Origin: a phage
Sequence record: PZ179881.1
Length of the DNA stretch: 41,801 nucleotides
Strand: one strand, 5' to 3'
The position numbers were made by a program, and so were the translations under genes. The notes under the pieces are model-generated. The model was not told where the DNA came from, searched no databases, and was given only the letters and a program-made list of their open reading frames with translations. Positions 4,191 through 16,668 of the stretch are shown piece after piece (the stretch's first letter is position 1; the number at the start of each line of letters is the position of its first letter).

Positions 4191-4503
4191 AACCTCGCTT
4201 TAACCTGTGGGTTAGCCGGGTTGCCCTGTGCTTTACTCTGTGCGGTATCCTGTGCGTTAACCGGGTTGTACTCACCACGTCCCGCAGGTTTATCAGAGTC
4301 GCCACGGGTTAGACTCAAGGGTTATCGGTTGGTGAGTTTAGCAGTTACATCACCGGGTAACGAGGGTATCGGGTTAACAGTGGCTATAGTAACAGGGTTA
4401 GCCGGGAGTGTCAACCGGGTTTATTCATTGGGTTACTCATTGGTTTAAATCCGGGTAGACAGGCGGCCTATCTGTATCTTCTGCCATTACCCAGAGAGTA
4501 AAT

Positions 4504-4527
4504 CTGAATTGGCACCCCTATAGTAAC
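4504..4527 (+). promoter_or_regulatory. Phage RNAP promoter (CTGAATTGGCACCCCTATAGTAAC) in terminal/leader region
   Basis: One of four near-identical + strand copies of yTGAwTTGGCACyCCTATAG; resembles the SP6/K11 class of single-subunit RNAP promoters (xxCACTATAG core); predicted +1 at the final G (4523). Confidence 0.65.
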
Positions 4528-4565
4528 AGAACGGTCGAATGCGGCTTGTGTATCTGTTACGGCGG

Positions 4566-4770
4566 TAACCCGGAGGGAAGGGAGGGAGGAGAGAGACACG
4601 GGAGAGAGTAACCCAGAGAGGAGACTACCCGGAGAGACTACCCAGAGCATAGCCCAGAGGTTAGCACCCAGAGAGTAACCCAGAGGAGAGCAACCCGGAT
4701 AAGCTAACCCGGTTAACAGACACGGAGAGCAAGCCAGAGAGTAACCCGGCATAGCATAACCCGGAGAGCT
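4566..4770 (+). repeat. Array of about 13 short purine-rich direct repeats (CCCrGAGAG-type units, period about 12-13 bp)
   Basis: Visible tandem units such as ACCCAGAGAG, CCCGGAGAG, CCCAGAGGAGAG, often followed by TAA or CTA; starts about 40 nt downstream of the phage promoter at 4504. Confidence 0.6.
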
Positions 4771-4805
4771 ACCGCCTATAGTAAACCCGGCTAACCCTGG
4801 TTAAC

Positions 4806-4817
4806 CTGCACTCGCAA
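4806..4817 (+). repeat. Recurring hairpin motif copy 1 (CTGCACTCGCAA)
   Basis: Core GCACTCGCA, potential TGC-ACTC-GCA stem-loop; intergenic, ~30 nt upstream of the sigma70-like promoter. Confidence 0.5.
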
Positions 4818-4848
4818 AGGGTATCTGTAAATAATTTCTAAAAGAGTG

Positions 4849-4878
4849 TTGACACGGGCTAATCAGTATTGCTATAGT
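4849..4878 (+). promoter_or_regulatory. Sigma70-type host promoter candidate (early)
   Basis: TTGACA (4849-4854), 18-bp spacer, TGcTATAGT extended -10 (4870-4878); AT-rich stretch upstream (4826-4846). Confidence 0.5.
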
Positions 4879-4988
4879 TCACATCGTCGAAGGGCAACAC
4901 GGAAACGGATAGCCCAGAGATACCCGGTCAAGCGGGTTAAGTAGACAGCCTGCTCAGTCATACGAACAACAGGCACTTGACAAGATGT

Positions 4989-5029
4989 GATGTAACGTAG
5001 TACCTTAGTAACCGATGTAACGCAGTACC
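4989..5029 (+). repeat. 16-bp direct repeat pair GATGTAACGyAGTACC
   Basis: Copies at 4989-5004 and 5014-5029 differ at one position; between a TTGACA box (4977-4982) and the first early ORF; candidate protein-binding site. Confidence 0.45.
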
Positions 5030-5088
5030 GCTCTTTAACAATCCGGGTAATCTATCAAGTGATGCCGTCTAACAATGAGGGTAACACG

Positions 5089-5400
5089 ATGGAATTAAAG
5101 AAACAGTTGACACGCTATAAACGCAGTGCTAACGTAGAAAAGCTCCACCAGACGCTAAGCGCTGAGGCGATGCAGAAGGATGGGCAAGCGGCACGACGCC
5201 GCAAGAAACAGCTAAGCGAGCGGCTTTACATTCCGCAAGTTATAAGCTCTAATGACTTCTCCGATAAGGGGAACATGCGCAAGACGGCAGCTAGGAGCAA
5301 TCAGGGCAACGTCCGCGCCATCGGCAATAAGACCGATGTTAAGATTAACAGCTATTGGTCAAGTAAACGCGGCGATAACATGCCGAAAGATAAAGGTTGA
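5089..5400 (+). CDS. Hypothetical early protein (very basic, low complexity)
   Basis: ATG at 5089 with GAGGG 7 nt upstream (track ORF 5059 begins at an upstream GTG); first ORF after the terminal promoter region; coding status less certain because composition looks atypical. Confidence 0.45.
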   Translation: MELKKQLTRYKRSANVEKLHQTLSAEAMQKDGQAARRRKKQLSERLYIPQVISSNDFSDKGNMRKTAARSNQGNVRAIGNKTDVKINSYWSSKRGDNMPKDKG

Positions 5401-5453
5401 CAGCTACGGCGTCACCTGATAGATTACCCGGACAGTTAGCCAGTGACCGCAAC

Positions 5454-5465
5454 CCGCACTCGCAA
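5454..5465 (+). repeat. Recurring hairpin motif copy 2 (CCGCACTCGCAA)
   Basis: Core GCACTCGCA flanked by AACCC ... GGGTT, which can extend the stem; in the ORF-free gap. Confidence 0.5.
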
Positions 5466-5936
5466 GGGTTCAAACGGTTGAGTCACTGAGTTAACAAATC
5501 GCTTGACACTAAGCGATAACATGATGTAAAGTGATTACCGAGTTGACACGATGTTGGTGTCCTCCACGGCAGGGCGAGTAAACAGCCAGCCGATGCGCAG
5601 TCCTCCGGCGCGATGAGTCCTACGGGACGGTAGATGGGGAGGCCGAGCTAGGATTTAGGTCACATAAAATAATCCGAAGGGTGTGTGGCGAGCATTACCG
5701 TCTTATAGTCGAAAGGCTCACGGTAGGAATCGCGGCAAAGGTTCTCTTATCCAGTCAGTACAGGGATAACGTCCGATGCCACCAACGAGATAACATCCAG
5801 AGACGCTGGACGGTTGGAACTGAGTACGCTTAACGGTGGAAATGGGAAGGCTTGCGTAGTGATGTTATCTGGTTGGTTAATGTAAGCGTCATTGATGTGA
5901 TGGCGCTGACTTTAACTAACAACTGAGGATATAATC

Positions 5937-6506
5937 ATGGCAACTGCAAAAATCAACTTCGCTAAACTGACCACCACTGAGCAGATGGACGCGGCAATCG
6001 CCAACGTAGCAGAACGCTCTAACCTGCTGCAAGCTGACATTCAGCACGTCGCTGTAGCTATCCTGTGCCACGCCTTCCGTACTGGCGACTACACTCGTGC
6101 TAACACGCTGCACGATGCGCTGGGTGCTGGTGTACGCCGCAAGGGTCTGGTAGCGTGGTTCAGCAAGGGTGGCCTCAAGGTGTCTGAGAAAGAGCAGGCA
6201 TTCGTGGGCTTTGAGCAAGACCTTGATGCCCTGCGTATCAAGGCTGAGAAGGGTGACGACAAGGCTAAGGCTAAGGTCGTGGCTCACCTCGACGCGATGA
6301 AGAAACAGAACTGGTGGGACATGAAGCCGGAGAATAGCTTCGCTGGCTTTGACTTTGAGGCTGAGGTTGCCCGCCTGATTAAACGTGCGCAGAAAGCCAT
6401 TGAGAAGGATGGCGCTACGCCTTCCGATGCTAAGGGTGAGGACTACAAAATGACTGTGACGCCTGAGAAGCTGGCCCAGCTCAAGGCTCTGGTAGGTGCA
6501 GCATGA
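5937..6506 (+). CDS. Hypothetical early protein
   Basis: 189-aa ORF, GAGGA 7-8 nt upstream of ATG; no recognisable motif. Confidence 0.7.
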   Translation: MATAKINFAKLTTTEQMDAAIANVAERSNLLQADIQHVAVAILCHAFRTGDYTRANTLHDALGAGVRRKGLVAWFSKGGLKVSEKEQAFVGFEQDLDALRIKAEKGDDKAKAKVVAHLDAMKKQNWWDMKPENSFAGFDFEAEVARLIKRAQKAIEKDGATPSDAKGEDYKMTVTPEKLAQLKALVGAA

Positions 6507-6781
6507 TTAAGTCTATCAGCGTGGCGGTGCCTGAGCACCGCGCTGTACCCTGCAAGTCAAAGGTGAGCTGGTCGTCACCATTCCATAGCCGCGTGAAGTA
6601 TGAGGAGTACCTCAAGCGCTATGACTATGTGGTGGGTGTCAATGGTGTGGCGTTTATCACCCGCACCTTGAAGCATAACGGCCTCGTGATGATTGCGACG
6701 GTCAAGGTGTACTTTGAGAATGCACCTGTGGTAGAGTTCAGCTATGCGCCAAGTCATGCGCTGCTGGAATCCCTTGCGTAA
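6503..6781 (+). CDS. Hypothetical early protein
   Basis: 92-aa ORF whose ATG overlaps the upstream stop (ATGA), suggesting translational coupling. Confidence 0.6.
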   Translation: MIKSISVAVPEHRAVPCKSKVSWSSPFHSRVKYEEYLKRYDYVVGVNGVAFITRTLKHNGLVMIATVKVYFENAPVVEFSYAPSHALLESLA

Positions 6782-6901
6782 TGTGTTTGGTGTGTGGTGC
6801 TGGTTAACTCCCGGCACCACTGACCACGACAACTACCTCCTGATGTATGGGTGGAATGTCAAGGTGACTCAATGGAGAAGGTGACAGGCCGATGGCTTGC
6901 T

Positions 6902-6912
6902 TGCACTCGCAG
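6902..6912 (+). repeat. Recurring hairpin motif copy 3 (TGCACTCGCAG)
   Basis: Intergenic, ~40 nt upstream of the ORF starting at 6951. Confidence 0.5.
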
Positions 6913-6950
6913 GCCATTATCATGTTCCCTAATGATGTGAGGATGTAACG

Positions 6951-7355
6951 ATGTTTACTGTATTCCTGAGCGCGTTCCGTGGTGAGCGCACGTTTGAGCA
7001 GAACGTACTGAAATCTGCTGAGCTGGCTTCCCTGCTGATTAATCAGGGCTATACGCCGGAAGTGGTGGCGGGATTCTACCCGGAGAACGGCGGCCAGACC
7101 GTGACGTTTGAGCAGTCCTACGCCGTGCGTGTTGAGACGTATGCTGAGTGCGTCAAGTTGGCACAACTGGCGGGCGATGCGTTCCAGCAGGAATGTGTCC
7201 TGGTGGTCGATGTGCTTGACCGCATGGCTGCATCGTACCTGTACCCGGCTGGTGACTCCACGACTGAGGGTTACCTGCGTCGCCAGACTGAGCAGCCAGA
7301 GGGTGCGCGTAGTCAGTGGCGCGGTGCGTGGTGGACTATTGAGGCGACTGCGTGA
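6951..7355 (+). CDS. Hypothetical early protein
   Basis: 134-aa ORF with GAGGA upstream of ATG. Confidence 0.65.
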   Translation: MFTVFLSAFRGERTFEQNVLKSAELASLLINQGYTPEVVAGFYPENGGQTVTFEQSYAVRVETYAECVKLAQLAGDAFQQECVLVVDVLDRMAASYLYPAGDSTTEGYLRRQTEQPEGARSQWRGAWWTIEATA

Positions 7356-7912
7356 TGTGGTGGGATTGTGGATTAGCGATATACGATACGCTCCGGTTTA
7401 TAGAGGATGTGAAGAAGATGGAGAAATTACATGGGGTTATGGCTACTCGCGGTCATTGTGTGGGTAATGGCGGTCTTCGCGGTCATTCGGTTGGTCGCTA
7501 TTTCCCGTGCGTGATTTACATGAAGGGTAACCCGTCACAGCTAACGTGGTGGGTGCGCCAGCCTAATGGCGTGGATGCTGGGCCGCATAAATCCTACGAG
7601 GAGGCGGCTATGACGGCGCACAGCTACAACACCGGGCAGTGTGAGGACACTATCCGGGAAGTGTACCTGATGAAGGTGCAAGTTAACGAGGACAAGGCTA
7701 CCGGGGAAACTGACTGCGTAGCCTACTGCATGGCGGAGGAGATACCCTTCGATGTGTACGGATTGTACGGCGTGACTCCCGAAGGGTTGAGCCTGCATCT
7801 GTGTGATTATGACCGCTACCCGGCAGCACGGAATGAGTTAGCCCGTGCGCAAGGTCTGGTAGCTGGTGGCCCTGTACTGTATCGTGACCTGCTGGAGGCA
7901 CTCAATGACTAA
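7355..7912 (+). CDS. Hypothetical early protein
   Basis: ATG at 7355 overlaps the upstream TGA; an alternative start at ATG 7418 has a better SD (GAGGATG... 7403-7407). Track ORF 7352 starts at GTG. Confidence 0.55.
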   Translation: MWWDCGLAIYDTLRFIEDVKKMEKLHGVMATRGHCVGNGGLRGHSVGRYFPCVIYMKGNPSQLTWWVRQPNGVDAGPHKSYEEAAMTAHSYNTGQCEDTIREVYLMKVQVNEDKATGETDCVAYCMAEEIPFDVYGLYGVTPEGLSLHLCDYDRYPAARNELARAQGLVAGGPVLYRDLLEALND

Positions 7913-8147
7913 GACACAACGCCGTATCAATAAGCGCAACCTGATTCGTAACAGCCGCCGCTACCGTGTGGTAACCGGGGAGGGTAACGGGCATTACTTT
8001 CCGGTCGGCACCATTGTACGCCATGCTGACGCTGAGCATTACGCTGATGTAGGCGGCTCTGAGTCAGAGAATAACTTCCTTGTCGTTGAGACAGGCAAGG
8101 TACGATTCCCACTCAAGCAGTGGGTAAGCCCGCGAGATATCGCATAG
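7905..8147 (+). CDS. Hypothetical early protein
   Basis: ATG 7905 preceded by GGAGG (7895-7899); in frame with track ORF 7866-8147, whose N-terminal extension is rejected. Confidence 0.55.
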   Translation: MTKTQRRINKRNLIRNSRRYRVVTGEGNGHYFPVGTIVRHADAEHYADVGGSESENNFLVVETGKVRFPLKQWVSPRDIA

Positions 8148-8164
8148 TAGGCTGGCCGAAGCGT

Positions 8165-8175
8165 TGCACTCGCAG
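8165..8175 (+). repeat. Recurring hairpin motif copy 4 (TGCACTCGCAG)
   Basis: Intergenic, flanked by AAGCG ... CGCTT, ~50 nt upstream of the ORF starting at 8223. Confidence 0.5.
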
Positions 8176-8222
8176 CGCTTTATCAAGCATACTAACTGAA
8201 TATGATGATGAGGATTTGATGT

Positions 8223-8450
8223 ATGAACCGCGTAGTTTACTCCACCGATGCCGCTCACCCTGCGTACCGCAACCCACTGGTCGAGCAACCTGCTGAATCC
8301 ATGCGGGAGTGGGAAGAACGCCCACGCCGCACAAAGCGCGAGTGCCGCGATGCACATAATGCGCTGAACATTGAGTACCGCCGCCGTGCCGCCGCGTGTG
8401 GCATGACCTTTGAGGGCTACCTTGCCCGCTTCAACATAACCCTGAAATGA
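8223..8450 (+). CDS. Hypothetical early protein
   Basis: 75-aa ORF, GAGGA 8 nt upstream. Confidence 0.6.
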   Translation: MNRVVYSTDAAHPAYRNPLVEQPAESMREWEERPRRTKRECRDAHNALNIEYRRRAAACGMTFEGYLARFNITLK

Positions 8451-8460
8451 GGATGTTAAT

Positions 8461-8988
8461 ATGACCCGCACTATCTACCCAGGCTTGAAAGTCCGCGTCC
8501 GTGATGATGCCGCTGGCGTTAATTCGTGGAACATCGGCAAGGTGGTTACCATCGCGCAGGTGTATGGTAATTGGGCGTTGTACTACTACGACGATAACCC
8601 GACCCGCTACCGCATGACGCTGTTTAACTTCTGGAATCGCTTCGAATCGCTCGAAGTGAAAGGCCCGTTCCCTGACGACGAGCCGCAGGTATTCAACGAT
8701 GTGCGCCAGGCACCGCTGGGTATGGTGCTGCGCTATGACCTCGACGGTGAAGCGCCTTCCCGTGGTGCTAAGTATCCGTATGTCGTCCGCCTGTACTCCG
8801 GGCTGCACGGCTGGTGTCGTAATCGTGGGGCATGGGTGCCGATTCCGGCAGACCACGAGGGCGCATGGCTGTTCAACCTGAAAGACGTGTGGCCTGTACC
8901 AGCGCAGTGGACTGAGGCATTCGAGTACCCGATGCCATCCAATGCAATCCTTTATGTTCAACGTGTAACGGGAGCTGACAATGCTTAA
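8461..8988 (+). CDS. Hypothetical early protein
   Basis: 175-aa ORF, GAGGA upstream; Trp/Tyr-rich, no recognised domain. Confidence 0.65.
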   Translation: MTRTIYPGLKVRVRDDAAGVNSWNIGKVVTIAQVYGNWALYYYDDNPTRYRMTLFNFWNRFESLEVKGPFPDDEPQVFNDVRQAPLGMVLRYDLDGEAPSRGAKYPYVVRLYSGLHGWCRNRGAWVPIPADHEGAWLFNLKDVWPVPAQWTEAFEYPMPSNAILYVQRVTGADNA

Positions 8989-9364
8989 CCGACTGACTTT
9001 AATCATCCGCCCGGCGTCCAGCTATCACGCCCAGATTAAGAAGATACTGACCGACGAACGCTTCGACCACCAGTTCGGCTCGTTGCAGGTAGAGAACGCT
9101 GATACCGGACACACGGAAGACGTGGTGCTGGTGACCTGCGTGGACTTCCACGATGTAGGCGTAGTGATTGAGAAGCTGCGCACCCGTATCAATCCGAGCT
9201 ACTATCTGGTTGATGCGAGCAAGGCGGTGTTCAGCTACCACCATGTTAACCGCAAGCTGACCGCGCTGGGTTATCTGTACCAGTCCGACGTGGTGCTTCA
9301 CACGTATAACCGCCACATCAAAGTAGGCGACACTAACTATTCATTCTGGGAGAGCAAAGCATGA
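8981..9364 (+). CDS. Hypothetical early protein
   Basis: 127-aa ORF, GGGAG upstream, overlaps neighbours by a few nt. Confidence 0.6.
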   Translation: MLNRLTLIIRPASSYHAQIKKILTDERFDHQFGSLQVENADTGHTEDVVLVTCVDFHDVGVVIEKLRTRINPSYYLVDASKAVFSYHHVNRKLTALGYLYQSDVVLHTYNRHIKVGDTNYSFWESKA

Positions 9365-9657
9365 GCAAGAAAGCAGACGCATTGAACGGGGCAAAGGCAC
9401 GTATCGTAACGCTGGAGCGAGCCTACGAAGGGCTTGAGGGTAAGTACGCCCAGCTTCAAGCGCGGGCTGTGGTGGCTGAGCGCCGCTTCGAGTCAGCGCT
9501 GAGTGAGCTGGAGAACAAACACGCAGAGCTGGCTAACTGCCGTGGCCTGAATACCAGCCTGATTAAGAAGCTGGAGACGGCTCGCATCTGGGCTGTGGTC
9601 TTCGGCCTGCTGCTGGTAACCACCATCGGAACAATCGCAGGAGGTGTGTTCGCATGA
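9361..9657 (+). CDS. Hypothetical small membrane protein (coiled-coil N-terminus, C-terminal TM anchor)
   Basis: 98 aa; heptad-like charged helix then C-terminal hydrophobic segment IWAVVFGLLLVTTIGTIAGGVFA; GGGAGAG upstream; ATGA overlap with upstream gene. Confidence 0.6.
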   Translation: MSKKADALNGAKARIVTLERAYEGLEGKYAQLQARAVVAERRFESALSELENKHAELANCRGLNTSLIKKLETARIWAVVFGLLLVTTIGTIAGGVFA

Positions 9658-10082
9658 GCACTGGCACCGCACTGGTTCACCCGGATACCGCCAAGCTAAC
9701 GCCTGATGAGCAGAAGAAGGGCATCTACCACTACACGCCGCCAGAGGTTCTGGCGTTTAACAATGGCGAGCGCCTGACGGAGGACGACCTTGAAATCGTC
9801 AAGAAATTCTACGGTGGAGTTATCCCCAACATTACGCCGCATGACGTACCGGATGCGATACCCGCAGCTCCAGCAAATCCCGCGCCGCGACGTGTCGAAG
9901 CAAGCCCTGCACTCGCAGCACCTTACGGCGGTGCAAAGCGATTAGTGCGGCGGCGCACGGTGCAACCGGGGGCGGTGCCGCTGGTTGATATCACGAAACA
10001 ACTGGCAGCTAACCTGTCAGAAGATGATGCGTGGGCCGTACTGGTCACGCTGGCTCAACGATTCGATTTAGAGGTAGAGTAA
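9654..10082 (+). CDS. Hypothetical early protein (Pro/Ala-rich linker)
   Basis: 142-aa ORF with AGGAGG 9 nt upstream. Confidence 0.6.
   Translation: MSTGTALVHPDTAKLTPDEQKKGIYHYTPPEVLAFNNGERLTEDDLEIVKKFYGGVIPNITPHDVPDAIPAAPANPAPRRVEASPALAAPYGGAKRLVRRRTVQPGAVPLVDITKQLAANLSEDDAWAVLVTLAQRFDLEVE
9907..9918 (+). repeat. Recurring hairpin motif copy 5 (CTGCACTCGCAG)
   Basis: Inside ORF 9654-10082. Confidence 0.45.
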
Positions 10083-10083
10083 C

Positions 10084-10410
10084 ATGGCCAAGACCTTCAA
10101 GATTAACGCAAACTTCACCGCAACCCTGAGCCTGCAAACTGCTGGCGTTGATGAGTATGTCCGCGCCATCCGTGAAGCCGATGAGGTCGGCGAAATGGGT
10201 GAGTTCAGCAAGCGTCTGGTGAGCCTGCTGGACGAAGGCAAGACCGACGAGGCGCTGGTGATGCTGTTCAAGCACGGCATCCGCGCTGGCCTGAAAGACC
10301 TGGGTGACCAGCTCAACAACGAACTGCTGGAAGACCACGGCAAGTTCAAACACGCCCCGGCTACGGTATCCGTAGTCCCTGCAACCCCTCTCAATGTTGA
10401 CGCGGAGTAA
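10084..10410 (+). CDS. Hypothetical early protein (acidic)
   Basis: 108-aa ORF, GAGG upstream. Confidence 0.6.
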   Translation: MAKTFKINANFTATLSLQTAGVDEYVRAIREADEVGEMGEFSKRLVSLLDEGKTDEALVMLFKHGIRAGLKDLGDQLNNELLEDHGKFKHAPATVSVVPATPLNVDAE

Positions 10411-10415
10411 TGACG

Positions 10416-10673
10416 ATGAATGCGATTAAATTCCTGACTAACCTGCTGGTCAAGGCGTACCAGAAAGAAGCTGCCCGCGTACAGGCCGAGGCCGACAAGC
10501 TGGCGCAGGCACAAGCCGCCGAAGCGCTGAATGCAGTAGAGCTGGCGAAGGCTGCCGAGGTAGCCCGCGAGCAATCCGTAGAGCTGGGCCGTCAGAAGAC
10601 CGCCGCAGCCGACCGCGCCGCAGGCATCGCTGCCCGTGGCAAACAAGTTGAAGCCTTCTTCCTGGGAGAGTAA
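10416..10673 (+). CDS. Hypothetical protein (Ala-rich coiled coil)
   Basis: Track ORF 10410-10673; second in-frame ATG at 10416 has better SD spacing (GGAG 10403-10406). Confidence 0.5.
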   Translation: MNAIKFLTNLLVKAYQKEAARVQAEADKLAQAQAAEALNAVELAKAAEVAREQSVELGRQKTAAADRAAGIAARGKQVEAFFLGE

Positions 10674-10677
10674 GCGA

Positions 10678-10902
10678 ATGGAAATCATCAAAGTAGAAAT
10701 CATCTTCAAGCACACGCTGGCTGATAAAGTCAAGAACCTGTTCCGCCCGAAGGCCAAGCGCTTCCCGGCAGTCGCAACCTTCACCGGGTTCGATGCGGCG
10801 AGCCATAGCACTCAGGGTGTGCGGGTACGCTGGGGCCAGAACGCCTACCACTACCCGTGGCATCAGGTGAAACGTCTCAAGCTGACGTACAAGCCGGAGT
10901 AA
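10678..10902 (+). CDS. Hypothetical protein
   Basis: ATG 10678 preceded by GGGAGAG; in frame with track ORF 10636-10902, whose N-terminus would overlap the upstream gene. Confidence 0.5.
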   Translation: MEIIKVEIIFKHTLADKVKNLFRPKAKRFPAVATFTGFDAASHSTQGVRVRWGQNAYHYPWHQVKRLKLTYKPE

Positions 10903-10910
10903 TACAGCTA

Positions 10911-10933
10911 CAGGGTGGCGCTGTGCTGCCCTG
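10911..10933 (+). terminator. Hairpin at the early/replication boundary (possible terminator or processing site)
   Basis: CAGGGTGGC-GCTGT-GCTGCCCTG (9-bp stem with two G-U pairs) followed by a T-containing run TGTCGGTGTT; between the last early ORF and primase. Confidence 0.3.
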
Positions 10934-10962
10934 TGTCGGTGTTAATCCGTGAGGTAATGGTA

Positions 10963-11631
10963 ATGGCTAGACAGATTGAGAAACGGCTCTGGTTGCCGCA
11001 GGCGCGGCTTCTTCCCGTTGGTCATGACGATAAGATAATCCACAAAGGGTGTGGTGATAGACCGTCGCTGTTCATCAAGAACGACGACGATAAGTATTGG
11101 TGCTTCTGCCACCGCTGCCACGGCGGTGACTTCATGCCGAAGACATTGCAGCGAGTCAAGCAGAAGCTGGCACCTAAAACCGGATGGGTGCCGGAGGATA
11201 TCATCCCGCTTATGGATGCGGTGGTGAGTGAGCCTTACAACTTCCGTGAAATCTTCGAACGATATAGGATTAGTCCTTATGTTTCAATTCTTCGGTTTGC
11301 GCGTGATACGAAACGCATATACCTTCCTGATTCATCTGGTTCGCTCATGGGCCTGGATGCTACGGGGCAGGCCATTGCCCGGTTCTATTCCCCGCACAAG
11401 CGAAACCTGGCGGTATTCTATGGTGACAATCCTGGTAGCCTTGTTGTTACTGGAGGCATTGAGGAGTATCTTACTCGTTGCAAGGCTAATGAGTCCGCAA
11501 TCCTGGTGATGAACCGGGCCGCTGAGAAGGCCGCACTTGCAGAGCTTTCGAAGGGTTCGTATACGAATCTGGTCGAAGGCAAGTTTCTTAAAGACGGGTT
11601 CAAGCGTGACCTGCGAATGTTCAAGGAGTAA
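10963..11631 (+). CDS. DNA primase (zinc-ribbon plus primase core)
   Basis: Cys4 zinc-binding motif CGDRPSLF...CFCHRCHGG near N-terminus; lies directly upstream of helicase; start chosen at ATG 10963 (GAGG 8 nt upstream) rather than track GTG 10915, which falls inside a hairpin. Confidence 0.6.
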   Translation: MARQIEKRLWLPQARLLPVGHDDKIIHKGCGDRPSLFIKNDDDKYWCFCHRCHGGDFMPKTLQRVKQKLAPKTGWVPEDIIPLMDAVVSEPYNFREIFERYRISPYVSILRFARDTKRIYLPDSSGSLMGLDATGQAIARFYSPHKRNLAVFYGDNPGSLVVTGGIEEYLTRCKANESAILVMNRAAEKAALAELSKGSYTNLVEGKFLKDGFKRDLRMFKE

Positions 11632-12878
11632 TGATGTTAGATAAACTGCTGGTAGCAACACTGGCTGACCGCACACGATACAAGGCGCTGGCTAAGCAGG
11701 TGCCTCTGGGTGAGCTGGGGACGTCAACCGAGTGGCTCATCAAGTCGTTCGGCACGTTCTTCGACCGTAACCCGGAGGCGAAGCAGGTCGATTATGATGT
11801 GCTCCGCACGATGGCGCGGCTCAAGCTGGAGAATCAGGAGTCTGCCCCGGTGCTGACGCTGATTGACAAGGCGGCGGAGATTAAGGTCACGCCGGAACAA
11901 ATCAACAACACGTCCCTGATGCTGATGGAGCAGGGCTACGCCGGGCGAGTCGCTACACTGGTTAACCGATACCAGGACGGCGAGGAGCTGGACATTAGCC
12001 ACGAGCTTTACAAAGAGACGATGGCGATGCGCAAGCAGATTGGCGCGTCGGCTGAAACCATGTTTGAGGAGCCGGATATCCATGAGATACTTGCTGAGCA
12101 AGCTCGTGACGAAGGCCTTAAATTCCGACAGACTTGTTTGCAGGAGTTCATCAAAGGTCTTATGCCCCCGCTGTCAGTTGCTTTCTGTGCTGGAGTGGAC
12201 TCTGGTAAGACCTCGTTCCTCTGCGACGCCCTCACCTACTTCGCGCCGCAGGCGGAGAAGCTCTGGCCAGGCCGCCCGATACTCTGGTTCAGCAACGAAG
12301 GCGTCGTCCGCGAAATCTGGCCTCGTCTCTACTCCGCTGCCCTCGGAATGGATGGGAAGAAGTTAGCCCACATGCCAGCGCGTGACCTGTATAAGAAGTA
12401 CGAGGATGCGCTGGGCGGCAACCGCCACAAGATTAAGCTGAAAGATGCACACGGCTGGTCACTGGCTCAGGTAGCCGGGGTGGTTGAGGAGATGAATCCA
12501 ATCATCGTCGTGTTCGACATGCTGGCTAACTTCAAGTTACCCGGCGTGGAGAAGCGCCACGAGAAGATGGAGGCGTTGTTCCAGGAGGTGCGTGAGATGG
12601 CAGCGCTGCATGACTTCATCGCTATCAGCACCGTCCAGTTGAGCGCCGAGGGTTACGACATGCTGTACCCGCCAGGCACCGCATTGAAGGATGCGAAGAT
12701 TGGTATTCAGGGTGCGCTGGATATCCAGATTAACATGGGCCGCTTGAACGACCAGGCTTACGAGGCGATTCGCGGGTTCAGCCTGCCGAAGAACAAGCGT
12801 AAGATGGTAGGCAAGTCCAGTAACATGAAGGCTGAGGTGTTGTTCCAGCCTGACTTAGCGAGGTTTATTGACAATTGA
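11631..12878 (+). CDS. Replicative DNA helicase (DnaB/T7 gp4 helicase-domain-like)
   Basis: 415 aa; Walker A-like AGVDSGKTSF; AAGGAG upstream; ATG overlaps primase stop. Confidence 0.75.
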   Translation: MMLDKLLVATLADRTRYKALAKQVPLGELGTSTEWLIKSFGTFFDRNPEAKQVDYDVLRTMARLKLENQESAPVLTLIDKAAEIKVTPEQINNTSLMLMEQGYAGRVATLVNRYQDGEELDISHELYKETMAMRKQIGASAETMFEEPDIHEILAEQARDEGLKFRQTCLQEFIKGLMPPLSVAFCAGVDSGKTSFLCDALTYFAPQAEKLWPGRPILWFSNEGVVREIWPRLYSAALGMDGKKLAHMPARDLYKKYEDALGGNRHKIKLKDAHGWSLAQVAGVVEEMNPIIVVFDMLANFKLPGVEKRHEKMEALFQEVREMAALHDFIAISTVQLSAEGYDMLYPPGTALKDAKIGIQGALDIQINMGRLNDQAYEAIRGFSLPKNKRKMVGKSSNMKAEVLFQPDLARFIDN

Positions 12879-14134: not shown

Positions 14135-14199
14135 TCCACGGGAAATACCAGAGGACGCGAAGTTCCCTAAAGACTGGCACTTGACAGGGTGGAATTGAC

Positions 14200-16668
14200 A
14201 TGGCTATGAAATGCCTGATTCACGACTGTGAAACAGAAACTAACCCGTGGTATGGACAGGTGGCATCGCCGTACTGCCCGGATAACTACGTGGTTGAGGA
14301 CGCCTGGGAGACGGTAACCCTGGGCGGTGAGGTGGAGATTAGCCCGCGTACCGACCGCCGCTACAACTCGCTTGAGGAGTGGAAGGGCAACTGGTCTGTG
14401 GACTTCTCCGGGATTGATATCTACGTGGCCCACAATGCTGCGTATGAAATGAGCTGGTTACTGGAGCACGACTATGATAACTTCATGGCGTTTCTCAAAC
14501 GTGGTGGTCGTGTTTATTGTACCGCTTACGCTCACTATCTACTCAGCAACATGCAGGACACTTACCCCGCGCTTAACGACGTTGCACCAATCTACGGCGG
14601 TACGCCAAAGGTGGATGCAGTCAAGGCACTATGGGAAGCTGGCGTTAAAACGTCGGATATTGACCCGGCGCTACTTCGGGAGTATCTGTTCGGGCCTAAC
14701 GGCGATATCGCCAACACCACCAAAGTTTTCCTGGGAACGTGGTCGGAGCTTGTTAGACGTAACATGTTGAAGATGGCGCTGGTGCGCATGGATGGCCTGC
14801 TGTTCTCTGCCATCTGTATGCACCACGGCTTGAAGGTTGACATGGAGGTAGCGGAGCGTGACCGCAGCCGTAACGAGCGGTTGCTGGAAGGCCTGCACTC
14901 GCAGGTGATTCAGTATCTGCCAGCGGATATGCCCGCCGAAGCCCGTGCGCAGTTCACCGGGACACGCTTCCAGTTGTCGGCGTTCATCTTCGGTGGCGCT
15001 ATGAAGTACACGGCGCGAGTACCGCGTGAGGATGCCGACGGCAATCCCATCTACGTGAAGAAGGAAGGGCCGTACTTCAAGAGCATCAAAGGAGCGCTGC
15101 CAGAGAGCGCCTGCATGTTCGACGAGGAGGCAGGTGGCCTTTGGTATTCCCCGGAGCTGAAAGAGCACCAGGCGCGTTACACGGCAGGTAAGAACAAAGG
15201 CCTGCCGAAGTTCGATAAGTATGTGACCGACGAGGTTGATACGAAGAACGGCGACCTGCTGTATCACTTCCCCGGCCTGCTGTCTGAGGAGGTGCAGGAG
15301 AAGCTGAGCCTGGCGATTGAGGGTGAGTGGTCTGGTAGCCAGAAGCTGCAAGACGGCAGCCCGGTAATCAGCACCAGTGGTGACGTGTTGGATGTGCTGG
15401 CGGCGCACGACGTGCCAGTAGCTAAGTTGTTGAAAGATATCGGGAAGATTGATAAAGACCTCGGTGCATTCTACATCAAGCGCACGTTCAACAAAGATGG
15501 CAGCTTGAAGAAAGAAGGCGGCATGTTGCAGTACGTGCAGCCGGACGGCTTCATTCACCACACGCTGAACCACACGAGCACCGTGACGGCGCGACTCAGC
15601 TCGAACAAGCCGAACCTCCAGCAGTTACCACGAGCGGAGGAAGCGCGGGACGAGAACGAGTTCAAGTCCACGGTTAAGGAAATGTTCGTGAGTCGCTTCG
15701 GTGACGACGGCGGCATCCTCCAGGAGGACTACAGCGCACTGGAGACGGTTGGTTTGCAGGTGTTGACCCGCGACGTTAACCTCAAGGCTGCGCTGCTCAA
15801 AGGCCTGGACATGCACTCTATGCGCCTCGCGGCGATGGAGAACCAGACCTATGAGTACGTGGTGGCGCGTACCAAAGACGACACGCACCCTGAACACGCT
15901 GAGTGGGACGTGAAGCGTACAGGCGTTAAGCCAGTTGCATTCCAGTATCAGTATGGTGCGACGGCTTACGGCATGGCGATGAGCACTGGTAAATCCCAGG
16001 ACTTCTGCCAGGCGTTCATTGACGCGGAGAAGAAGGCGTTCCCCGGCGTTGAGGACTGGTACGACAACACGGTGTACCCGACGGTGGAAGCGACGGCAGC
16101 GCAGAACAAGCCTATCCGTGTGCAGCTCGACGACGGGCGTTACGTTATGTTCGGCTGGGGTACGTTCACTACCCACGACGGCACGACGTATCAGTTCCGC
16201 CAGCAGAGCAAGCAGCGTTGGAATCCGGTGACTAAGAAGCGTGAGGAAGTCAAGGAGTTCACGGTGCCGCAGATGCGTAACTACCCGATTCAGGGCGCAT
16301 CCGGTTTCTTCGTGCAGCTCGCTTGCGGTATGCTGATTCGTCACTTCATCGCCAACGACTTCTACGGTGGCAAGTGCCTGCCGATTAACACGGTTCACGA
16401 TGCGTGTTACTTCGACACTCACAAAGACGTAGTGTACCAGGCAGCGTATGAGGTGGAGGCCATCATGGAATCCATCCCGGAAATGCTGAATGCACTGTGG
16501 CCTGCGTATCAGTGTGAGGTGCCGTTCCCGGTGGCAGGTGGCTTCGGTAAGAACATGGCCGAGGAGCACCACGTTTACGACAAGGATAGCAAAGACCTGT
16601 TCAAACAGCAGAAAGCGAACTTCAAGAAAGAGTTCCTTGCTAAGAAGGGTATCGCGGTTCAATTCTGA
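14200..16668 (+). CDS. DNA polymerase (family A, with 3'-5' exonuclease domain)
   Basis: 822 aa; exo-like HDCETETNPWYG near N-terminus; pol I-type motifs (SSNKPNLQQLPR, NYPIQGASG, VHDACYFD). Confidence 0.9.
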   Translation: MAMKCLIHDCETETNPWYGQVASPYCPDNYVVEDAWETVTLGGEVEISPRTDRRYNSLEEWKGNWSVDFSGIDIYVAHNAAYEMSWLLEHDYDNFMAFLKRGGRVYCTAYAHYLLSNMQDTYPALNDVAPIYGGTPKVDAVKALWEAGVKTSDIDPALLREYLFGPNGDIANTTKVFLGTWSELVRRNMLKMALVRMDGLLFSAICMHHGLKVDMEVAERDRSRNERLLEGLHSQVIQYLPADMPAEARAQFTGTRFQLSAFIFGGAMKYTARVPREDADGNPIYVKKEGPYFKSIKGALPESACMFDEEAGGLWYSPELKEHQARYTAGKNKGLPKFDKYVTDEVDTKNGDLLYHFPGLLSEEVQEKLSLAIEGEWSGSQKLQDGSPVISTSGDVLDVLAAHDVPVAKLLKDIGKIDKDLGAFYIKRTFNKDGSLKKEGGMLQYVQPDGFIHHTLNHTSTVTARLSSNKPNLQQLPRAEEARDENEFKSTVKEMFVSRFGDDGGILQEDYSALETVGLQVLTRDVNLKAALLKGLDMHSMRLAAMENQTYEYVVARTKDDTHPEHAEWDVKRTGVKPVAFQYQYGATAYGMAMSTGKSQDFCQAFIDAEKKAFPGVEDWYDNTVYPTVEATAAQNKPIRVQLDDGRYVMFGWGTFTTHDGTTYQFRQQSKQRWNPVTKKREEVKEFTVPQMRNYPIQGASGFFVQLACGMLIRHFIANDFYGGKCLPINTVHDACYFDTHKDVVYQAAYEVEAIMESIPEMLNALWPAYQCEVPFPVAGGFGKNMAEEHHVYDKDSKDLFKQQKANFKKEFLAKKGIAVQF
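14892..14905 (+). repeat. Recurring hairpin motif copy 6 (CCTGCACTCGCAGG)
   Basis: Perfect 5-bp stem CCTGC/GCAGG with ACTC loop, inside the DNA polymerase gene. Confidence 0.45.

Follow-up and report, generated by a model that had tools for sequence, protein, structure and literature searches.

What are the 14 small genes that precede the replication module in the phage genome of sequence record PZ179881.1, and do they serve host takeover or anti-defence? In this stretch of 41,801 nucleotides (hereafter, the window), positions 5089-10902 hold 14 consecutive plus-strand open reading frames (ORFs) of 74-189 amino acids (aa), numbered here O1 to O14, all of which were found at the coordinates and sizes first assigned to them. 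The original prediction, made from the DNA letters without database searches, described them as ORFans without a recognisable motif and as candidate takeover or anti-defence genes, by analogy with the same position in T7-group phages. We consider it likely that the block is the early/middle accessory region of a podophage of the genus Cronosvirus with a phiKMV-type layout, that it is transcribed by the host RNA polymerase, and that it includes a putative S-adenosylmethionine (SAM) lyase (O4) and a putative relative of T7 gp5.5 (O12). An anti-defence role appears to be supported for one of the genes (O4) and plausible for two others (O12 and O13).

The ratio of non-synonymous to synonymous substitution rates (dN/dS) against relatives lies between 0.00 and 0.54 across all 14 ORFs, and therefore all of them are genes under purifying selection. 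The good Shine-Dalgarno sequences and frequent stop-start overlaps described at the outset were borne out, with GAGG/GGAG-type sequences 5-11 nucleotides (nt) upstream of 13 of the 14 ORFs and overlaps at 7 of the 13 junctions. O3 is the Shine-Dalgarno exception, and its start lies inside an ATGA overlap with the O2 stop codon. No terminator-like sites were found on the plus strand inside the block, and the replication module follows directly, as had been stated, with a primase gene at 10915-11631 and a helicase gene at 11631-12878.

Comparison with deposited genomes revealed where the block belongs. Window bases 5000-11000 are 94-96% identical at the nucleotide level to the Cronobacter phages EspYZU05 and vB_CskP_GAP227 over ~80% of their length and 88% identical to Kosakonia virus Kc318; identity to EspYZU05 and GAP227 outside a replaced segment of 1.1 kb is 92-96%. 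These three relatives belong to the genus Cronosvirus (Autographiviridae, Melnykvirinae); they have the same gene order as the window in this region, and the products of O1 and O4-O14 show 90-100% protein identity to at least one of the three. The term ORFan does not fit most of the block: all genes but one (13 of 14) have known homologues among published phages, 10 products fall into PHROG families, and the block is ~95% identical to deposited Cronosvirus genomes. A tblastn matrix of eight related early regions showed O4, O5, O7, O8, O9, O11, O12, and O13 in all Cronosvirus genomes examined, O5 and O11-O14 also in Yersinia phage phiR8-01 (Pienvirus), and O4 and O5 also in Pantoea phage LIMElight, with O3 alone having no counterpart.

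The window is a circular permutation of a Cronosvirus genome, with window position 4612 aligning to GAP227 position 1. In GAP227 the genes that follow the block are, in order, those for primase, helicase, ligase, DNA polymerase, exonuclease, endonuclease VII, phage RNA polymerase, and the structural proteins. Judging from this gene order, the layout of the window genome is of the phiKMV type: the gene for the phage's own RNA polymerase comes only behind those for replication. Both the block and the replication module would therefore be read by the host RNA polymerase, and the positional analogy with T7 is a loose one. After DNA entry, the host enzyme would transcribe rightwards through the block from sigma-70-like promoters at the left end. 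A cluster of such putative promoters occupies 4849-5935 on the plus strand, both ahead of O1 and in the O1-O2 gap, with TTGACA hexamers at 4849, 4977, 5397, 5503, and 5543 and a further site at 5906-5935. Four promoter-like sites of the cluster have 10-11 of 12 matches to the sigma-70 consensus, and 6 of the 15 plus-strand TTGACA hexamers in the whole window fall within the 700 bp of 4849-5548. The position that matches window 5503 is an annotated promoter in GAP227.

Two more TTGACA hexamers (14181-14200) lie immediately upstream of the DNA polymerase gene, which starts at 14200, and would fit transcription of the middle genes by the host polymerase. In addition, a leftward sigma-70-like promoter at 4386-4414 on the minus strand (TTGACA, a 17-nt spacer, TACTAT, and an extended -10 TG) is directed away from the early genes and recalls the annotated leftward A0 promoter of T7 and T3.

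Profile searches place O4 (6951-7355, plus strand, 134 aa) with the SAM lyases (SAMases) of the T3 gene 0.3 type. Its product matches Pfam family PF23780 (S-AdoMet_lyase) with an E value of 4e-31 and 108.2 bits (cut-off, 28) across profile positions 1-132 of 133. The T3 SAMase (7OCK/8BB1) was found with O4 as a single sequence at E 1e-3 and with a profile of six O4 family members at E 3.5e-9, and it was the sole solved relative detected; Svi3-3 was not detectable from O4 by sequence in the profile search. In the alignment, the T3 catalytic residue E68 corresponds to O4 E54, T3 Q94 to O4 Q80, and the G-x-Y motif to G41-F-Y43, and O4 also has E81; G41, Y43, E54, and Q80 are invariant among the six family members. 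The conserved substrate-binding residues of Svi3-3 are Gly56, Tyr58, Glu69, Gln104, and Glu105, and its E69Q substitution nearly abolishes activity (Guo et al., PMC7877911), while E68Q/Q94A is an inactive mutant of the T3 SAMase (Andriianov et al., bioRxiv 10.1101/2023.02.27.530186). The dN/dS of O4 is 0.00-0.30. More distant tblastn matches (27-35% identity) come from T3/T7-like phages that infect Klebsiella, Pectobacterium, Salmonella, and Erwinia; the genes matched carry the annotation S-adenosyl-L-methionine hydrolase and lie near the left end, where T3 has gene 0.3. As judged from these profile and alignment data, O4 is a member of the SAM lyase family with an intact active-site signature. 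It shares with the T3 gene 0.3 product the Pfam family, the catalytic Glu and Gln, the Gly-x-Tyr motif, and an early left-end position in an Autographiviridae genome, but its identity to that protein is only ~25-30% and it is the fourth gene rather than the first.

The public annotation says otherwise. RefSeq names the O4 homologues of GAP227, Dev-CD-23823, phiR8-01, and LIMElight (loci L001 2306-2710, L005 2416-2820, L007 3840-4217, and L008 2966-3361) "SAM-dependent methyltransferase", and the description of phrog_2226 reads the same, so that O4 might be taken for a methyltransferase. However, the founding SAMase, T3 gene 0.3 (L010 901-1359), bears this very label; the sole Pfam match of O4 is S-AdoMet_lyase, with no methyltransferase family found at E<=1; and a 134-aa protein with the G-x-Y / E / Q-E signature of SAM lyases is, on general knowledge of sizes, too small for a Rossmann methyltransferase fold. 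We give the methyltransferase assignment next to no chance, and the RefSeq label is a systematic mislabel propagated from PHROG 2226.

As a SAM lyase, O4 would cleave SAM to methylthioadenosine and homoserine lactone and would thereby starve SAM-requiring defences (type I and type III restriction-modification and bacteriophage exclusion [BREX]), as the T3 SAMase does. The T3 enzyme counters type I restriction and BREX partly by binding MetK, with contacts made by its M1-N9 tail and Q103-T106 loop (bioRxiv 10.1101/2023.02.27.530186). Both elements are absent from O4, which begins at T3 V10 and so has no counterpart of the nine-residue N-terminal tail; its residues L89, D90, R91, and A93 align to the loop, with Q103-T104-H105-T106 replaced by L-D-R-(M)-A. 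We therefore predict that O4 is simply a SAM lyase and would probably act by SAM cleavage alone. Its substrate could also be another one, namely SAM-AMP, the signal of type III CRISPR systems, in which case O4 would be mainly an anti-CRISPR lyase. SAM-AMP lyases have the SAM lyase fold and its key residues, and a phage-encoded example has been described (PMC12255297). The T3 SAMase, though, is the only solved relative found by sequence, with no SAM-AMP lyase chain at E<=10, and in T3-like enterobacterial phages the distant O4 homologues occupy the place of gene 0.3; we regard a main action on SAM-AMP as very unlikely and SAM as the predicted substrate.

At the right-hand end of the block, two products resemble T7 proteins. 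O12 (10084-10410, plus strand, 108 aa), whose acidic character had been pointed out and was confirmed (isoelectric point [pI], 5.0), matches phrog_1452, "Gp5.5-like host HNS inhibition", at E 2e-19. With BLASTP against a database of 30 T7 proteins, it is 29% identical to T7 gp5.5 over the full length (E 7e-6), and for a metagenomic relative 62% identical to O12 a weak hit to PF11247 (Phage_T7_55) is on record. The two proteins are of similar size (108 versus 99 aa), both are acidic, and both carry a C-terminal K-x-(S/A)-P-A-T-V motif. In contrast to T7 gene 5.5, O12 lies before the primase gene and not after the polymerase gene, and no adjacent 5.7-like gene was detected. O12 is probably a distant homologue of gp5.5, an antagonist of the host nucleoid protein H-NS that binds the H-NS oligomerisation domain (PMC8501957), and would probably bind H-NS as well.

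O13 (10410-10673, plus strand), a helical product of 87 aa, appears to be a remote homologue of T7 gp4.3 (DUF5471). It is 33% identical to gp4.3 over 79 aa (BLASTP E 7e-7; phmmer E 4e-6), and hhalign gave the pair a probability of 92%. Its match to PF17565 (E 1e-3, 19.7 bits) is under the 25-bit cut-off, as are the matches of all four family members, the best at E 4e-4. Both proteins have the N-terminal helix L-(L/V)-x-x-Y-x-x-E-A-x-(R/K) and both genes adjoin a primase or helicase gene, whereas O13 is 17 aa longer and, as said, below the Pfam threshold. Given that it adjoins the gp5.5-like gene, O13 was also considered as a gp5.7-like protein, and this candidate was rejected, as O13 matches gp4.3. 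The one hint at what gp4.3 does comes from a knockout screen, in which it ranked as weakly countering a single RADAR system (PMC11482910). No other likeness emerged when all 14 products were compared with 30 small T7 proteins.

O12 and O13 are flanked by two further genes. O11 (9654-10082, plus strand; phrog_9577, E 1e-49) encodes 142 aa, in which a 31-aa invariant N-terminal peptide is joined by a Pro/Ala-rich linker to a C-terminal domain that is small and acidic; O14 (10678-10902, plus strand; phrog_11140, E 8e-36) encodes a basic protein of 74 aa directly upstream of the primase gene. O14 is 100% identical in GAP227, EspYZU05, and Kc318, and a 35% identical protein is encoded at the same position in phiR8-01 (g016). 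The neighbourhood of these four genes raises the question of whether O11-O14 are accessory factors of the DNA replication module rather than takeover or anti-defence genes. In T7, the class II genes 5.5 and 4.3 stand beside the polymerase and primase-helicase genes, and a link to DNA replication has been described for gp5.5 in conjunction with H-NS and tRNA (PMC8501957); moreover, O14 is fully conserved in those three genomes and always abuts the primase gene, and O11-O14 are kept from Cronosvirus to Pienvirus. On the other hand, T7 gp5.5 and gp4.3 are both non-essential according to the notes of the T7 record, gp4.3 was a weak RADAR counter in the knockout screen, and O14 is missing from EspYZU13 and from the metagenomic scaffold_133, so it is not a core gene. 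We judge the replication role to be somewhat unlikely, yet a serious possibility, and prefer to see O12 and O13 as plausible takeover or counter-defence genes. Within O11, residues 1-31 (window 9654-9746; MSTGTaLVHPxTAKLtPxxQxKGxYxYtPPE) are invariant from Cronosvirus to phiR8-01, while the Pro/Ala-rich middle varies, and the conserved peptide looks like a short docking motif.

The part of the block that departs from its relatives is the O2-O3 cassette. The match of the window to GAP227 and EspYZU05 at the nucleotide level ends near 5742-5790 and returns at 6778-6879, which delimits a swapped segment of ~5790-6878 (1.1 kb) that is replaced in GAP227, EspYZU05, and Kc318; the closest copies of the cassette are on unannotated metagenomic contigs. 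O2 (5937-6506, plus strand, 189 aa) represents a divergent allele of a widespread and fast-evolving podophage early-protein family (phiKMV gp3, phrog_1448). It is 37-45% identical to its counterpart in the close relatives, <46% identical to each of the homologues in 137 phage records (all of them annotated as hypothetical), and ~30% identical to phiKMV gp3 itself, which reportedly falls within stretches that vary greatly among phiKMV-like phages (PMC5638911). An AlphaFold model of O2 built on a 67-sequence alignment is mainly helical with one beta-hairpin, with a predicted local distance difference test (pLDDT) score of 90.4 and a predicted template modelling (pTM) score of 0.71.

O3 (6503-6781, plus strand, 92 aa) is a true orphan; its slot is hypervariable, and its translation is coupled to that of O2 via the ATGA overlap. 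A tblastn search (E<=1) of 50,697 phage records and a pattern-seeded scan of IMG/VR found no match, and when 1.84 billion representatives were searched exhaustively with HMMER, one real homologue (P0004) turned up, which is 66% identical and also 92 aa long. A second candidate, the 558-aa repeat protein P0005 (E 2.5e-4), was judged to be probably a chance match. The lack of a clear Shine-Dalgarno sequence, of a PHROG or Pfam family, and of a homologue in deposited phages might suggest that O3, and perhaps other ORFs, are open frames that arose by chance. Yet the copy of O3 on contigs L015 and L016, which is 98% identical, has 12 synonymous differences against 2 non-synonymous ones (dN/dS 0.04), a homologue of the same length exists, the O3 start sits in the ATGA overlap, and the other ORFs all have dN/dS <0.55 against several relatives. 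There is, in our view, only a slim chance that any of them is spurious, and we treat O3 as a gene.

In relatives, the slot of O3 is taken by an unrelated ORF of 95-96 aa (Kc318 and Dev-CD-23823) or of 85 aa (scaffold_133), and nothing comparable is present in GAP227 and EspYZU05. Between this slot and the SAM lyase gene, scaffold_133 encodes a 37-aa hydrophobic peptide (L012 1122-1235) and GAP227 has an unrelated 38-aa ORF (L001 2119-2235), with the window itself holding only a 170-bp gap between O3 and O4 (6782-6950). The arrangement recalls phiKMV, in which a lineage-specific gene of 122 aa follows gp3 just as O3 follows O2; its LUZ19 counterpart is Qst (LUZ19 Gp4), a host-metabolism hijacker (bioRxiv 10.1101/577908). 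Unlike this positional match, the sequence of O3 shows no similarity to Qst or to any protein in that slot, and the analogy is one of position alone. On the Logan metagenomic contig L015 (377-2130), O2 and O3 are 98% identical to those of the window, while the first gene is 32% identical to O1; near-identical O2-O3 beside a divergent first gene means that the left end is mosaic, and L015 shows that Cronosvirus phages which circulate together have recombined their left-end genes. O6 (7905-8147, plus strand; phrog_28513, E 1e-47), which encodes a basic protein of 80 aa, marks a second variable slot, being present in GAP227, EspYZU05, EspYZU13, and phiR8-01, absent in Kc318, and replaced in DevCD.

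Exchange at the O2-O3 and O6 slots fits strain-specific host-interaction or counter-defence genes, which is not proof that they are such. One could go further and propose that the O2-O3 cassette (and perhaps the O6 slot) is a counter-defence hot spot in which O3 would neutralise a defence specific to the host strain, and that O2 and O5 would be widespread takeover proteins with novel folds. Taken as a whole, this proposal is a speculative one that we hold to be unlikely.

The remaining products have fewer distinguishing features. O1 (5089-5400, plus strand, 103 aa; phrog_9286, E 2e-29), the first gene after the genome end, was singled out early on as very basic, and its pI is indeed 10.5. It is 91-95% identical in GAP227, EspYZU05, and Kc318, with DevCD and EspYZU13 keeping only the C-terminal 24 aa; its dN/dS is 0.14-0.23, and no match was found in Pfam, NCBIfam, PADLOC, or the Protein Data Bank (PDB). 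Upstream of O1, the repeat ACCCRGAGA occurs in five copies packed into 4489-4767, out of eight in the window (0.57 expected), and this zone is probably where the terminal repeat lies, as it straddles window 4612, to which the physical left end of the GAP227 genome corresponds. Downstream of O1, the gap before O2 (5401-5936, 537 bp) lacks a convincing ORF; GAP227 and EspYZU05 retain its first two-thirds, with similarity stopping at ~5742-5790, at the start of the swapped cassette. An Rfam scan of 4300-11000, which includes this gap, found no RNA family at E<=0.1.

O5 (7418-7912, plus strand) encodes 164 aa (186 aa if translation starts at 7352), with a Gly/His-rich N-terminal segment followed by two alpha/beta domains. 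Residues 1-30 (window 7418-7510) are nearly invariant in 85 aligned proteins, yet are the worst modelled by AlphaFold (pLDDT, ~50), and on this model they may form a binding segment that folds only on its partner. O7 (8223-8450, plus strand, 75 aa) belongs to DUF7267 (PF23929, E 4e-25, 88.6 bits, cut-off 27; phrog_5136). O8 and O9 are limited to Cronosvirus. O8 (8461-8988, plus strand, 175 aa) has a conserved Trp-rich C-terminal domain, a variable N-terminus, and a dN/dS of 0.04-0.54, and no PHROG, Pfam, NCBIfam, PADLOC, or PDB match; O9 (8981-9364, plus strand, 127 aa) is 37-100% identical in all Cronosvirus relatives, with no family or PDB match. O10 (9361-9657, plus strand, 98 aa) is the tail-anchored coiled-coil membrane protein that had been recognised from the sequence: its N-terminal helical/coiled-coil region is followed by a C-terminal hydrophobic segment (residues 71-98; mean Kyte-Doolittle value, 2.15), and it is the sole product of the block with a transmembrane segment. 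All Cronosvirus relatives share this architecture, including Kc318, EspYZU13, DevCD (gp11), and scaffold_133, despite identities of 38-65% or less, and in Pfam O10 has only weak coiled-coil hits.

All 14 products were scanned against Pfam and PHROGs, O1-O10 against NCBIfam, and O1-O3 and O5-O11 against PADLOC. Two products (O4 and O7) passed curated Pfam thresholds, so the statement that no motif is recognisable does not stand once profiles are used. Beyond O4, O7, O12, and O13, the Pfam and PHROG scans returned only PHROG families without a function; NCBIfam and PADLOC gave only sub-threshold noise (best E, 0.004), and sequence and profile searches of the PDB with O1, O2, O5, O8, O9, O11, O12, and O14 gave no significant match. 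In addition, none of the papers found in the library searched gives functions to Cronosvirus early genes.

How far, then, does the view of an early/middle accessory region with takeover and anti-defence members carry? A number of observations count against it. Promoter-like sites are, overall, not above the expectation from shuffled sequence (6 versus 4.7), and it is only their clustering that is notable. Two divergent SAM lyases, Svi3-3 and ORF1, both without the MetK contacts, failed to relieve BREX when expressed (bioRxiv 10.1101/2023.02.27.530186); membership in the family is therefore no guarantee of an anti-defence effect, and an anti-BREX effect of O4 is not to be assumed. The hhalign match between O12 and gp5.5 has a probability of 78% and covers only the C-terminal 36 columns, and none of five O12-family members reached PF11247 at E<=1. 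O11-O14 adjoin the replication genes and could serve replication instead of takeover. Finally, the structure models of O2 and O5 are confident, yet have no informative neighbour among solved structures.

The functional part of the original prediction was accordingly upheld in part. The block is probably a host-transcribed left-end accessory region of a T7-supergroup podophage, as the analogy had implied, but the phiKMV-type layout makes that analogy loose. O4 belongs to a proven anti-defence enzyme family and O12 is a probable gp5.5 relative, whereas O12 and O13 match T7 class II genes (5.5 and 4.3) and not class I genes. Of the checks put forward with it, the search for remote homology yielded the SAM lyase, DUF7267, and the two remote T7 relatives, with 11 products (all but O4, O12, and O13) left without a functional assignment, and structure prediction, run on O2 and O5, gave AlphaFold models that match no solved structure.

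Collectively, the block is an ordinary early region, familiar from sequenced genomes of an established phage genus; it is nothing new in kind and leaves current understanding unchanged. What is new here is the corrected functional assignment of O4, the absence of MetK-binding elements from O4, and the divergent O2-O3 cassette with its true orphan gene. The correction extends to annotation, in that the genes named "SAM-dependent methyltransferase" in Cronosvirus, Pienvirus, and Limelightvirus would be SAM lyases. Candidates for functional screens are the O2 (phiKMV gp3) family, which is found in at least 137 phage records and combines a confident fold that has no solved relative with rapid evolution, as well as the N-terminal module of O5 and the orphan O3 in its swap-prone slot. 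The lack of the MetK elements makes O4 a natural test of whether SAM cleavage alone suffices for counter-defence. From the SAM lyase assignment, one would predict that the Cronobacter, Kosakonia, and Pantoea phages with the relabelled genes are able to weaken SAM-dependent restriction and BREX, a point of relevance to host-range prediction where phages are put forward for the biocontrol of Cronobacter sakazakii.

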